A stretch of DNA of 5,383 nt. Origin: a virus (taxonomy: Duplodnaviria; Heunggongvirae; Uroviricota; Caudoviricetes). The stretch lies in IMG/VR virus record IMGVR_UViG_2609459799_000011. One strand, given 5' to 3'. Made by a program: the position numbers and the translations under genes. The notes under the pieces are model-generated. The model worked only from the letters and a program-made list of their open reading frames with translations, was not told the DNA's origin and made no database searches. This document shows positions 1,514 through 5,288 of the stretch, one piece after another; position 1 is the first letter of the stretch, and each line of letters begins with the position of its first letter.

Positions 1514-1720
1514 ATGGATAAACTAACCACAGACCCAAAGTTACAGGCTGCGCGAATTGCAGCTGATATTACAATTGCAGCAATGACATCCACCAGGGGT
1601 AACTTTACCTCTTTTCATACAGCAGGTGATTCATCCGCTATGCAGTTATGGAACGCGTGCTTTTCTGATGTAATTCGTGCAATCAGCGAGTCAGTTGACC
1701 TTCGCGAACCGCAAAAATAG
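1514..1720 (+). CDS. Hypothetical small protein, 68 aa.
   Basis: ATG preceded by AGGCAGGAAAA. It is convergent with the next ORF and overlaps its 3' end by 38 nt, so one of the two may be spurious. No recognisable motif. Confidence 0.35.
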   Translation: MDKLTTDPKLQAARIAADITIAAMTSTRGNFTSFHTAGDSSAMQLWNACFSDVIRAISESVDLREPQK

Positions 1721-1883
1721 CGCATCTTGGGGTACACAGGATCTGCATAGCTATCCACATTGCGGTGGCGAAGTTTCGATCCTGTAATGTATCTTCATCA
1801 AGTCCTGAACGTAGCGCATTGATAATTTCCGCGCTTAATCTTTCTAGGCCTTTGGTATCAGGTTGCTTTTTATTCTTGTCCAT
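1683..1883 (-). CDS. Hypothetical small protein, 66 aa from the internal ATG (78 aa if the upstream ATG at 1919 is used).
   Basis: The internal ATG at 1883 has AGAGGA 8 nt upstream; the ATG at 1919 has no Shine-Dalgarno. Same strand as the two small genes upstream. Confidence 0.4.
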   Translation of the reverse strand: MDKNKKQPDTKGLERLSAEIINALRSGLDEDTLQDRNFATAMWIAMQILCTPRCAIFAVREGQLTR

Positions 1884-1958
1884 GATTATTGTCCTCTGAT
1901 TGGTATATAAAGCGCCCATGAAAATAAAACCGACAGGAGAAACTGCCGGTTTGTATTG

Positions 1959-2248: not shown

Positions 2249-2431
2249 TCAGGGCTGGGTCGGGTCTTTTGGGAGCGGAGTTGCCTGCGCTGTTTTACTG
2301 AGTTTTTCAGCTGCTGCGTCCTCAATTTTGCGGCGAACATAATTTCTGATGGCCTTATAACCACCACTCACCAGATATAACGCACATACTGCCGTGCAGA
2401 AATACAATAAAATAAGCTGTAAAAATGTCAT
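2249..2431 (-). CDS. Hypothetical small single-pass membrane protein, 60 aa from ATG at 2431 (the ORF track starts at a TTG at 2443).
   Basis: ATG at 2431 with GGGAGGG 5 nt upstream. Residues about 3-23 (FLQLILLYFCTAVCALYLVSG) form a hydrophobic helix followed by a charged tail. Confidence 0.5.
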   Translation of the reverse strand: MTFLQLILLYFCTAVCALYLVSGGYKAIRNYVRRKIEDAAAEKLSKTAQATPLPKDPTQP

Positions 2432-2526
2432 TATCCCTCCCAATTATTGACATGGTGTTGACACCGGTAATATCTGTTAGGTAAAAAGGTGCACTGCATT
2501 TTTTGCTTTGGATATAACGATCTTTT

Positions 2527-2568
2527 TGCCGCCGGTTTCTTGTTTTCCCTTACCGGCGGCATTTTTTT
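2527..2568 (+). terminator. Rho-independent terminator oriented for rightward (plus-strand) transcription, with no plus-strand gene upstream.
   Basis: 10-bp stem TGCCGCCGGT (2527-2536) / ACCGGCGGCA (2552-2561) followed by TTTTTTT (2562-2568). On the minus strand the hairpin is followed by A-rich sequence, so it is not a canonical terminator for the esterase gene. Confidence 0.45.
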
Positions 2569-2575
2569 ATCCTGC

Positions 2576-4630
2576 TTACGCGTTATTCACTTCCACCACG
2601 ATACTGTCAATCAGTACCGGGTAAGTCGCATTTTTAGTGATATCGGTCACGCGCAACTTGTCTGCCGTAAACGTGCCGACCGGAGACTGCGACAGCATGA
2701 ATGGTGTCCCGTCCTTACCATCAATGACCGGCGTCACCTCAATACTGTTGTTACCGGCAAAACGGAAGCCCAGCGTATGCCATTCGTTATTAAATGCGCC
2801 GAATGACCCCAGCTTCGTGTTCTGCGCCGTGTTTCCTTTGTGATACATCACGTTAAGGTCTGTGGCATCGCTCTGTACGTAGAACGATGCCAGCAGGTTA
2901 TGACCGGCATTTCCTTCCAGAGTAACCCCTTGCGGCAGGGCAGAAACCGGCCAGTACAGCGCCAGTGCGTACTGATTAGCCGTAAGCGCGCCATCGAGTT
3001 TAAAACGACAACTGACAAGACCACCTTTACCCAGCAGGTCCGCACCATTACCAGCATCATGCTCAAGGTACCAGGGGGCTCTTCCTGTTTCCTTGGTCAG
3101 TTTCATTGCCTTACCCCCGCTGGCTCCGGCATCATCCACGATTTGAGCCTTGCCACCTCCGGCAGCCCAACCCTGTGGTGTCAACCGTCCTTCAGACTCA
3201 GATGCCCGGTAAGCAAATAGCGTACTCATCGTCGTGGTGTCTGCGGGTGGCGTGGACGGTTTTGATGGTGTATCAGGTGACGGCTTCTCATCCGGTGGTG
3301 TCACGGTCTGCCCGCGCATCAGTTCAGCCGTGCGCCCTGCATGGAGCATAATAGCTGAGGCCAGACGGTCTGAAATGACGCCCCTGCGTGCCCATGAGCT
3401 GAAATGGCTGTCACGCTGTGTCGAAACAAAACTGCCCTGGGTTCGGGATGCTGCACCGTAATACCCGACAGCCACAATATCCGGGTCTTCCGCCGGAGCA
3501 TTCGTTGGCGTGCTCTGTCCATTCTCATCCGTCAGGAACGGTACAAAGAAAATTTTCTGTGCTTCCTTGCCTTTGTAGCCACCGTATACTGCCTCATATT
3601 TATCGGTGCCAGCGTTTTTCCAGTAATACGTGGTATCACCGCAAATCCACGGCACCGTGGTGGCATTTCCACTCACGCACTGCGCAGCAAGCGGAGCCAG
3701 GTCAGTTCTGAACTGCTGAACCATGGCCGTGAATAAACTATTATGCTGCTGGCTTCCTGAGGCAAGGTCTGCCTCTCCCTGCATCCAGACCACAGCCAGA
3801 AGTTTGTTTTTCGGGTTTTTCGCCAGCGCGACTTTGGTGCGGCTTACCAGGTCCTGATACAGAGGTTTACCGGCCCCCCAGCGTGAAGAATCAGCGGAAG
3901 CACCGCTGGCCTCACTGAATGAGCCGTCGGCTCCAGTGGTGAATGCTGACCCGCCACGACAACAGGGCACCAGAAGTATCCCGGCATTCTGTGGGATATA
4001 GGGAAGCAGTTTTTTGGCAATATGCAACCCCTGACCGACAGTCCCGTACTGGCCTTTTGCCAGATCAGCTTTCGGGTGGTTTATCCCGCTCATATCCTGA
4101 ACATCATGCAGGCAGTGGTCTGCCGGAATGATGTCGTTGTATGTACACGACGTACCGTTGGGCGTTACCGTACTGCGGCGTGCCAGTTGCTTAATGCGTG
4201 GGTCCGGGCGGTCAAACGAATCCGGTAACGGCAGCCCCTCGCCGTAGGCCATGCCATTTGACTGACCCGCGAGAATGACAACAAAGTAATATTCCGGCTC
4301 TGAACTGCTGCCATTCGTGCTACCGGAAGGCCCGGCGTTATCCGGTGCATTCCAGTCGGAGGGCGTGAGCGTTCCGGCCACGTCAGATGTGATTGGAATG
4401 ATGCCAGTCACGCCTGAACTGGTGATTTCTGCACTGGGATTACCGGATACCGGCATTACCCATAATGGCTCTTTCGTGCTGAAGCGGATCACGCAGTCTG
4501 CGAAGGTGATCCCCCCTTTATTACCCGAAGGGCGGAAAGGGCTTTCAATAAATGCCACCGTGCCACCGGCAACCTTGACTGAAAACTCTCCGGGCATGGC
4601 GGAGAGCATTTTCCACTTGGAGTCTGACAT
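2576..4630 (-). CDS. Putative carbohydrate O-acetylesterase of the SASA/SGNH-hydrolase type (phage NanS-p-like), 684 aa, with a Pro/Thr-rich linker and lectin-like C-terminal domain.
   Basis: Motifs LAGQSNG (residues 120-126; Ser124 at nt 4259-4261), WMQGEAD (282-288) and DSH (407-409) resemble sialate O-acetylesterase family signatures as recalled. Linker QTVTPPDEKPSPDTPSKPSTPP is at about residues 441-468 (nt 3227-3310), followed by a roughly 215-residue C-terminal region. No N-terminal signal peptide is evident. Confidence 0.8.
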   Translation of the reverse strand: MSDSKWKMLSAMPGEFSVKVAGGTVAFIESPFRPSGNKGGITFADCVIRFSTKEPLWVMPVSGNPSAEITSSGVTGIIPITSDVAGTLTPSDWNAPDNAGPSGSTNGSSSEPEYYFVVILAGQSNGMAYGEGLPLPDSFDRPDPRIKQLARRSTVTPNGTSCTYNDIIPADHCLHDVQDMSGINHPKADLAKGQYGTVGQGLHIAKKLLPYIPQNAGILLVPCCRGGSAFTTGADGSFSEASGASADSSRWGAGKPLYQDLVSRTKVALAKNPKNKLLAVVWMQGEADLASGSQQHNSLFTAMVQQFRTDLAPLAAQCVSGNATTVPWICGDTTYYWKNAGTDKYEAVYGGYKGKEAQKIFFVPFLTDENGQSTPTNAPAEDPDIVAVGYYGAASRTQGSFVSTQRDSHFSSWARRGVISDRLASAIMLHAGRTAELMRGQTVTPPDEKPSPDTPSKPSTPPADTTTMSTLFAYRASESEGRLTPQGWAAGGGKAQIVDDAGASGGKAMKLTKETGRAPWYLEHDAGNGADLLGKGGLVSCRFKLDGALTANQYALALYWPVSALPQGVTLEGNAGHNLLASFYVQSDATDLNVMYHKGNTAQNTKLGSFGAFNNEWHTLGFRFAGNNSIEVTPVIDGKDGTPFMLSQSPVGTFTADKLRVTDITKNATYPVLIDSIVVEVNNA

Positions 4631-4703
4631 CGTCTTTTCTGCCTGTTTCTGAATTAAACAGAGTCAGAATAGCGACCGCTGAAAAATATGTGTTTTGCGG
4701 AAA

Positions 4704-4735
4704 TTCAAAAAAGCGTCACGGTACTTTTGGTGACG
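4704..4735 (-). terminator. Weak candidate terminator overlapping the invertase stop codon.
   Basis: Minus strand: stem CGUCAC (plus 4730-4735) / GUGACG (plus 4714-4719) with a 10-nt loop, then C plus UUUUUU (plus A-run 4707-4712). The invertase stop codon lies within the 3' arm. Short stem and large loop suggest it is leaky. Confidence 0.35.
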
Positions 4736-5288
4736 GAGCTGGTGAGGCAGGAAAATAACGATAAAGGGTGGAAAGGCCAATATCAAATATCAGTGCGATT
4801 TGTTTACGGGACTCGCCATTAGCCAGCAAACGGGCGATTTGCTCCCGCTCTTTCTCTGTCAGTTTCTGAGGTCTGCCGCCATGACGCCCCTGAGCACGGG
4901 CAGCAGCAAGACCCGCGCGTGTACGTTCAATAATGAGTTCCCGCTCCATTTCCGCCAGCGCGCCCATTATATGGAAAAAGAAACGTCCCATGGGAGTGGA
5001 TGTATCAATATTGTCCGTAATGCTGCGGAAGTTAACGCCGCGTTGCCGGAGTTCTTCTGTTAAAAGGACAAGGTGCTGCATACTGCGTCCAAGGCGATCC
5101 AGTTTCCAGACCAGCAGGGTATCCCCTGGCCGGAGTCGCTTTAATGCGCGTTTAAGTCCGGGACGCTCCCTTGTCTTACCGCTTATTCTGTCTTCGAAAA
5201 ACAGCTCACATCCTGCACATTCCAGCGCATTTCTTTGTAGCGCCGTATTCTGGTCATTTGTTGACACCCTGATATACCCAATCAGCAT
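4716..5288 (-). CDS. gin: Serine DNA invertase of the Gin/Hin/Pin/Cin family, 190 aa.
   Basis: N-terminus MLIGYIRVSTNDQNT...LQRNAL, the stretch GDTLLVWKLDRLGRSM, MGRFFFHIMGALAEMERELIIERT and a C-terminal helix-turn-helix (LSTLYRY) closely match Gin and Hin as recalled. AAGGAA lies 5 nt upstream of the ATG. The symbol gin is chosen from the com-mom context. Confidence 0.9.
   Translation of the reverse strand: MLIGYIRVSTNDQNTALQRNALECAGCELFFEDRISGKTRERPGLKRALKRLRPGDTLLVWKLDRLGRSMQHLVLLTEELRQRGVNFRSITDNIDTSTPMGRFFFHIMGALAEMERELIIERTRAGLAAARAQGRHGGRPQKLTEKEREQIARLLANGESRKQIALIFDIGLSTLYRYFPASPAPSPKVP

Follow-up and report, generated by a model that had tools for sequence, protein, structure and literature searches.

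A 5,383-nucleotide stretch of viral DNA (the window, to which all coordinates refer) carries, at 2458-2568 on the plus strand, what we judge with a probability of about 0.85 to be an independent small RNA gene, namely a variant of EcOnc33 that resides in a Mu-like prophage. Prophage small RNAs are known to rewire host regulation in pathogenic E. coli, with AgvB, AsxR, Esr41, and the Pas RNAs as examples. An earlier note, made from the letters of the window, had proposed a stand-alone plus-strand small RNA gene that opposes its flanking genes, and this proposal is supported by the O157 orthologue EcOnc33, which has been detected with the predicted polarity. The window locus and EcOnc33 are orthologous and syntenic, and their promoters and terminators are conserved.

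EcOnc33 and its counterpart in the window

In E. coli O157:H7 Sakai, EcOnc33 was reported as a small RNA that crosslinks to Hfq (Tree et al. 2014, Mol Cell; PMC4104026). Table S2 of that study (PMC4104026) assigns EcOnc33 to the minus strand of prophage Sp6, predicts a Rho-independent terminator, and gives a Northern blot size of ~71 nt and an Hfq-CRAC peak in five of five data sets (AUC 2.6e7). The Northern probe (PMC4104026) matches, as an exact reverse complement, the O157 sequence that corresponds to window positions 2489-2527. Within Sakai, the probe falls with 0 mismatches between ECs_1527, annotated as a 9-O-acetyl-N-acetylneuraminic acid deacetylase (esterase), and ECs_1528 (DUF1378), and it matches the strand that codes for these genes. 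Thus, the RNA detected in Sakai has the polarity that the earlier note predicted for the window.

The two loci resemble one another closely. Specifically, the intergenic region is 81.4% identical (149 nt) to that of Sp6; 67 of 84 alignment columns are identical in the RNA (80%), as are 43 of 54 in the promoter. A profile of EcOnc33-type sequences, in which a window-type sequence is included, scores 153 bits on window 2418-2571. In both prophages, the RNA gene occupies the slot between the stop codon of a nanS-p-type esterase gene and the DUF1378 gene and is oriented against both. The promoter elements, the stem sequence, and the loop core CUUGUUUUCCCU are identical, and the U tail is U7 here and U6-7 in Sakai. 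The differences are that the carrier is a Mu-like rather than a lambdoid prophage, that the window loop is 6 nt shorter, that two nucleotides are inserted before the stem, and that there are a few substitutions. One G-to-U change lies in the seed-like stretch of the 5′ part (CAUGUUUU in Sakai, CAUUUUUU here).

Queried with the 149-nt intergenic region, 361 of 5426 complete E. coli genomes carry the locus. Twenty-one of these carriers are at least 99% identical to the window, and the rest are mostly O157:H7 at 81.4%. Many of the 21 genomes with an identical or near-identical copy come from human stool isolates. The intergenic region had no blastn match among 50,697 phage genomes, and an exact-pattern scan that took one genome from each bacterial species was likewise without a match; copies were found only in E. 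coli prophages. The literature that we searched yielded no functional study of EcOnc33 and no mention of it in a main text.

Promoter, terminator, and predicted transcript

The elements that the earlier note listed are all present: TTGACA at 2447-2452 and again at 2458-2463, TAATAT at 2468-2473, and a hairpin followed by a T-run at 2527-2568. The spacing of 15 nt that it gave between the TTGACA at 2447 and TAATAT is also correct. The promoter that it assembled from these two hexamers is not supported by comparison across 14 distinct EcOnc33-type sequences drawn from complete genomes and IMG/VR prophage contigs. In relatives, the upstream TTGACA reads TTGATA, TTAATA, TCGACA, or TTGGCA, and it is missing from two variants. 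TAATAT reads TAATAC or TAATGC in every non-identical relative, with loss of the critical final T. The upstream TTGACA stems from an 11-bp duplication and is probably not a functional -35. This duplication (TTGAYATGGTG / TTGACAYCGKT) accounts for the tandem TTGACA pair at 2447-2463; the ST865 and 1604D011 variants lack it.

What is conserved lies slightly downstream. The proximal TTGACA (2458-2463), a 6/6 match to the -35 consensus, is invariant in all variants with the duplication, and the two variants that lack it have a single TTGACA, again 17-18 nt from an A-rich -10. Indeed, an A-rich hexamer (TAAAAA or TTAAAA) follows the proximal TTGACA at 17-18 nt in 14 of 14 variants, all of which keep TAAAA. 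The window has TAAAAA at 2482-2487, 18 nt after the -35. As a -10, an assignment that we infer from conservation, this hexamer is weak: it matches the consensus at four of six positions and is without the final T. The pattern TTGACA-N18-TAAAAA occurs once in the window, compared to 0.03 expected from shuffles, and the same geometry of TTGACA and A-rich -10 recurs with other RNA body types at the esterase slot. Given the conservation of TTGACA and TAAAAA across the variants, we assign 2458-2487 to the promoter and ~2493-2496 to the start; the promoter of the earlier note was probably the wrong one.

The terminator consists of a 10-bp GC-rich stem, a 15-nt loop, and a U7 tail (2527-2568, plus strand). 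In the predicted fold, UGCCGCCGGU (2527-2536) pairs with ACCGGCGGCA (2552-2561), and the T7 tract follows at 2562-2568. A simple terminator scan, which allows loops of at most 8 nt, missed this hairpin for the sole reason that its 15-nt loop exceeds the limit. Folding of the predicted transcript, one of the checks that the earlier note had suggested, gives -23.0 kcal/mol for the 76-nt RNA versus -12.0 ± 2.4 kcal/mol for 200 shuffled sequences (z = -4.5), none of which folds as well. The stem is kept among the 14 variants, and the loop sequence CUUGUUUUCCCU is invariant. Covariation does not add to this picture: there is almost no compensatory change in the stem among the 14 variants, only G-U pairs and single mismatches, because the variants are too similar. 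Support for the stem in vivo comes from Sakai, in which an intramolecular CLASH hybrid of EcOnc33 links both terminator arms. With respect to the loop, the core CTTGTTTTCCCT (window 2538-2549) is the same in all 14 EcOnc33-type variants, while the adjacent positions vary and contain indels; the core is pyrimidine-rich, has a UCCC motif, and resembles an anti-Shine-Dalgarno sequence.

The following scheme is suggested. A sigma-70 promoter, composed of TTGACA at 2458-2463, 18 nt, and TAAAAA at 2482-2487, would drive transcription from ~2493-2496, and the intrinsic terminator at 2527-2568 would end the transcript 8 nt short of where the convergent esterase gene has its stop codon. This would yield an RNA of ~75 nt that is U-rich and largely unpaired in its 5′ part and has the hairpin and U7 at its 3′ end. 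A U-rich open 5′ part together with a hairpin and U-tail is the standard shape of an Hfq-dependent RNA. The predicted RNA spans 2493-2568 on the plus strand (5′ end ± 3 nt; 67 of 84 columns identical to Sakai). Its mostly single-stranded 5′ part (2494-2520), which contains the seed-like CUGCAUUUUUUGC, is a candidate region for target pairing and Hfq binding, as judged from the fold and from the Sakai CLASH data. A start near 2480 could still be accommodated as an alternative to 2493. In Sakai, the edges of the CRAC and CLASH clusters extend into the A-run and are compatible with a start a few nucleotides upstream; the equivalent promoter predicts an RNA of ~81 nt there, versus ~71 nt by Northern blot.

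The earlier note had found no plus-strand gene upstream of the hairpin. We agree: no conserved ORF lies there or across the hairpin because indels of 1, 2, and 6 nt among relatives break any frame. Two plus-strand ORFs, 2489-2806 and 2508-2624, were considered and rejected; both cross the terminator and are disrupted by these frame-breaking indels.

A skeptic could argue that there is no RNA gene at all, that the hairpin merely stabilizes or ends the esterase mRNA, and that the promoter hexamers occur by chance. The hairpin does begin, on the minus strand, just 14 nt after the esterase stop codon (2562-2575: GCAGGAT, then an A7 run), and a consensus promoter scan listed no plus-strand promoter at the locus. 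We nonetheless consider this notion barely credible. Read on the minus strand, the hairpin leads into AAAAAGAUCGUU (also given as AAAAAGAUCG), and the U-tract exists on the plus strand only; thus, the hairpin terminates in the plus direction only. Moreover, the orthologous region yields a discrete RNA of ~71 nt, of plus polarity, that crosslinks to Hfq. The -35, the -10, and their spacing are kept in 14 variants and recur with unrelated RNA bodies at this slot, and chance would supply the promoter pattern 0.03 times per window.

Neighbouring genes and candidate targets

The window represents the right end of a Mu-like prophage that is inserted in an E. coli fimbrial usher gene. Several complete genomes match the entire window at 99.9% identity, and the copy annotated in NZ_CP009050 has an invertase as well as baseplate and tail genes and finishes with com/mom. 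The first ~87 bases of the window are host DNA, belonging to a disrupted FimD/PapC-type usher gene beside elfD, and the prophage end comes next. On the minus strand, mom (216-953) and com (907-1107) overlap as they do in Mu, and the invertase, from the gene list of the window, occupies 4716-5288.

Between the invertase and com/mom lies a module of minus-strand genes. It comprises a sialate O-acetylesterase of the nanS-p type (2576-4630; 684 aa; SASA and DUF6645, Pfam PF03629 and PF20350; RefSeq annotation), a small membrane-type DUF1378 protein (2249-2431; 60 aa, with a hydrophobic N-terminus; Pfam PF07125, E = 9e-33; RefSeq annotation), and, last, a DUF826 gene (1959-2213; Pfam PF05696). Directly after DUF826, a terminator scan identifies a strong terminator-like hairpin (1927-1952, minus strand) that would end the module transcript. 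The 144 bp that separate the esterase stop from the DUF1378 start contain the small RNA unit, which is on the plus strand and opposes both genes: the esterase gene is convergent with it, with the stop codon 8 nt past the U-tract, and DUF1378 is its divergent neighbor. Lambdoid prophages have the same gap and flanks, with a SASA esterase on one side and DUF1378/DUF826/holin on the other; there, the module lies downstream of the late promoter. The small RNA gene is thus one that travels with an accessory ("moron") module of esterase, small RNA, DUF1378, and DUF826, and the pairing of an EcOnc33-type RNA with this module is carried by Mu-like prophages as well. Current views are not overturned, as convergent small RNA genes beside accessory genes of prophage late regions have already been published.

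Other features of the window are minor. A second minus-strand terminator-like hairpin (1379-1408), with a 13-bp stem, lies within an annotated plus-strand pseudogene (1222-1497). Small ORFs at 1514-1720 (plus strand) and 1683-1883 (minus strand) have no Pfam match. An STnc100/PasD-type RNA upstream of the esterase is absent here (no Rfam hit in window 4631-4715); lambdoid contexts have one to four STnc100 copies at that position (loci L002, L003, L005, L237, and L287).

The earlier note saw a resemblance to type I toxin-antitoxin loci, in which case DUF1378 would be a small membrane toxin and the plus-strand RNA its antitoxin. The resemblance has a basis. As in hok/sok, ibs/sib, and ralR/ralA, a prophage small RNA gene lies beside, and diverges from, a gene for a small hydrophobic protein (60 aa, hydrophobic at its N-terminus), and the DUF1378 gene and the RNA are found together in most EcOnc33-type loci. 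Geometry and pairing energy speak against such a function, which we regard as highly improbable. The RNA overlaps neither the DUF1378 coding region, nor its ribosome-binding site, nor an mRNA that starts near the gene; rather, its start lies ~62 nt upstream of the ATG, and it extends away from the gene. Complementarity to the 5′ region of the DUF1378 mRNA (2249-2431), for which the earlier note had advised a search, is not above chance: in predicted pairing with the 113 nt of the DUF1378 upstream and start region, 66 of 500 shuffles in one comparison and 89 of 500 in the other are as good. The type I loci named above differ on both counts, that is, in mRNA overlap and in complementarity. Furthermore, the ribosome-binding site of DUF1378 varies between variants while the loop and stem of the RNA stay constant, and PasA and PasC occupy the equivalent slot in E2348/69, whose annotation shows no DUF1378 gene there. 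PF07125 is a phage late-region family without toxin or functional annotation, again unlike the proteins of known type I loci. Finally, the relatives of the window RNA set it apart from such antitoxins: the EcOnc33 orthologue is associated with Hfq and RNase E and has trans partners. The description of the RNA as antisense in the earlier note applies where a read-through esterase-DUF1378 transcript crosses the intergenic region; it does not apply to an mRNA that covers DUF1378 only.

For partners encoded elsewhere, information comes from RNase E-CLASH, in which the table of EcOnc-mRNA hybrids has 80 entries for EcOnc33 (Waters et al.). The top EcOnc33 hybrid has a score of 5.4 and an FDR of 2.7e-4, is present in both replicates and in both orientations, and has ECs5359 as its partner. 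It joins Sakai CCUGCAUGUUUUGCUUUGGAU, the equivalent of window CUGCAUUUUUUGC, to AUUUAGGUAGCAAACAUGCAGACC of ECs5359. ECs5359 (ECs_5359) is arcA, and the hybrid sequence AUUUAGGUAGCAAACAUGCAGACC covers the arcA start codon. The predicted duplex between the 5′ part of the RNA and the arcA start has an energy of -22.8 kcal/mol in Sakai (2 of 500 shuffles as good) and -17.5 kcal/mol in the window (14 of 500). The stretch that pairs in the CLASH hybrid is CCUGCAUGUUUUGC in Sakai and ACUGCAUUUUUUGC in the window; the two differ by one internal G-to-U change, which falls on an arcA-pairing base. We offer the arcA start region as a lead: it is the best-supported candidate target in O157, drawn from one high-throughput data set in another strain. 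The notion is that, as for the O157 orthologue, the RNA would be made in the lysogen and bound by Hfq, and its 5′ part would pair with mRNAs made elsewhere. We infer expression in the present host and the Hfq dependence of this copy from that orthologue. If the arcA link holds, the RNA would tie the prophage to host anaerobic and respiratory control.

The esterase 3′ flank and related small RNAs

PasA and PasC of EPEC strain E2348/69 are Hfq-dependent RNAs of ~80 nt that are encoded after a prophage sialate esterase gene (PMC8550237; doi 10.64898/2026.05.13.724894). Their position and orientation are confirmed at the recorded E2348/69 coordinates. The window RNA is similarly arranged: its gene lies in the gap after the esterase and is transcribed against the flanking genes ("> < >"), its 3′ end abuts the esterase stop as that of PasC does, and it shares with both a TTGACA promoter, an A-rich -10, and a 3′ end composed of a hairpin and poly-U. 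Its stem and seed differ from theirs. Membership in the Pas family was considered and rejected. The criterion of Zhu, Shabalina & Storz (2026 preprint) is sequence similarity by blastn, and we found no significant homology with profile HMMs in either direction. At E ≤ 100, the window contains no match to a profile of 50 PasA/PasC variants. In the opposite direction, the best match scores 3.2 bits in both runs (E = 0.37-1.1, a value that varies with the amount searched) and covers only the promoter of a PasC-like unit. Thus, we do not file the locus under the Pas family.

In Rfam (4227 families, searched with the window at E ≤ 10), the sole match is a sub-threshold one to Esr41 (RF02676). It spans the full length on the correct strand at 22.2 bits (E = 0.68), compared to a gathering score of 102 and to 108.6 bits for genuine Esr41, so membership in Esr41 is likewise rejected. 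Esr41, which resides in island SpLE1 of EHEC, does resemble the window RNA in overall shape, in that both have a 5′ part rich in U and a GCCG-rich terminator with UUUUUUUAU after it; unlike the window locus, it has no adjacent esterase gene. Conversely, the EcOnc33-type profile has no match to the Esr41 RNA or its promoter (2510-2622 of the SpLE1 locus, L298), and the only hit there, at 3901-3959, is non-significant (E = 1.2). Rfam also returns nothing at the known positions of PasA and PasC and thus contains no model for PasA, PasC, or EcOnc33. For this reason, the comparative definition of the gene given here (promoter, 5′ region, and terminator) should aid annotation.

To place the locus in a broader context, we surveyed the 3′ flanks of IMG/VR esterase homologues with 62-100% amino acid identity (76 loci, L219-L297; 41 distinct flanks). 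A convergent hairpin with T6-8 ends 1-10 nt from the stop codon in 39 of the 41, and TTGAC(A/T)-N17-18-(T)TAAAA lies ~110-150 nt from the esterase stop in 37 of the 41. Two flanks are exceptional, and the esterase ORF appears truncated or frameshifted in these. Between promoter and terminator, the RNA bodies belong to several unrelated types. Related Mu-like prophages (L218 3926-4085; L220, L221, and L231) match the esterase, DUF1378, DUF826, invertase, and com of the window and nonetheless carry a different RNA body, with the stem CCCGCCAG/CCGGCGGG and the promoter geometry TTGACT-N17-GTAAAAA. Alignments of these prophages with the window break at ~2404-2431, near the DUF1378 start, and resume at 2552, which is the 3′ stem arm. 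From these breaks, the swap of bodies between Mu-like prophages looks like cassette exchange, and the putative exchangeable cassette (2432-2551) would contain the promoter, the RNA body, the 5′ stem arm, and the loop.

A second type of body at the esterase slot leads back to Esr41. This type 2 body (…UUUUUUCUCCAUAGGUAUUACCACCGCCAGCG…) is found at L287 3254-3330 (minus strand) and at ~25 similar IMG/VR loci. It is significantly related to Esr41 together with the Esr41 promoter (L298 2510-2622, Sakai SpLE1; nhmmer E = 6.8e-6), and it scores 30.9 bits with the Rfam Esr41 model. Both it and Esr41 terminate in TTTTTTTATCA. A further relationship links the type 2 body to the Mu-like type 3 (E = 2.9e-5). 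Esr41 may, then, descend from a small RNA of the esterase slot, although it is now without an adjoining esterase gene.

These patterns lead us to propose, tentatively and at somewhat less than even odds, that the esterase 3′ flank is a dedicated, exchangeable small-RNA cassette site in lambdoid and Mu-like prophages, at which the seed-bearing body is swapped and from which Esr41 descended. The parts kept would be the TTGAC-N17/18-TAAAA geometry, the 3′ stem arm, the U-tract, and the placement against the esterase stop. At least five unrelated bodies would have been inserted: EcOnc33, the Esr41-like body, the CCCGCCAG type, PasA, and PasC. If so, the window displays one allele of a fast-evolving collection of regulators, and the G-to-U change in its seed may shift its targets relative to those of O157 EcOnc33. 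Variable 5′ parts have been described for PasA (Zhu et al., doi 10.64898/2026.05.13.724894); thus, the flank pattern extends a known pattern rather than establishing a new principle.

The tight placement against the esterase stop can also be taken to mean that the RNA acts mainly in cis. Over its full length, the RNA is complementary to intergenic sequence in a transcript that reads through from the esterase into DUF1378, and a cis role could mean RNase III cleavage, uncoupled expression of the two genes, or interference with convergent transcription, with trans targets being secondary. Such a role is compatible with the small RNA gene that we propose. In its favor, the terminator lies 1-10 nt from the esterase stop in 39 of 41 flanks whatever the RNA body, which suggests a constraint tied to the esterase gene, and 3′ ends of the EPEC esterase mRNAs are among the RIL-seq partners of PasA. 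We consider a mainly cis role unlikely on several grounds. Hypervariable RNA bodies behind a constant promoter better fit seed diversification in a trans-acting RNA because, in cis, any sequence would be antisense. EcOnc33 has many trans partners in CLASH, and the overlap with the read-through transcript remains at least 55 nt away from the DUF1378 ribosome-binding site. We also explored pairing, of the kind reported for PasA, with the part of the esterase 3′ coding region that lies outside the overlap, and found it unconvincing: 91 of 500 shuffles are as good for the 5′ part of the RNA, and 13 of 500 are as good for the stem-loop part, which is already self-paired.

Returning to a trans-acting EcOnc33 variant as the preferred reading, we note two compound arrangements of such units in other prophages. 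In PP2 of E2348/69 (L004 2766-2880), a second, shorter PasC-like promoter-terminator unit lies between PasA and the esterase stop, and the 236-nt "minor" form of PasA (Pearl Mizrahi et al., PMC8550237) has its 3′ end at the terminator of this unit. Finally, one prophage contig (L017, 1-1800) contains, within 1.8 kb, PasA, a PasC-like unit, a 124-aa C-terminal fragment of an esterase, DUF826, DUF1378, an EcOnc33-type unit, and a truncated esterase; this arrangement is a tandem, recombinant one of two modules.
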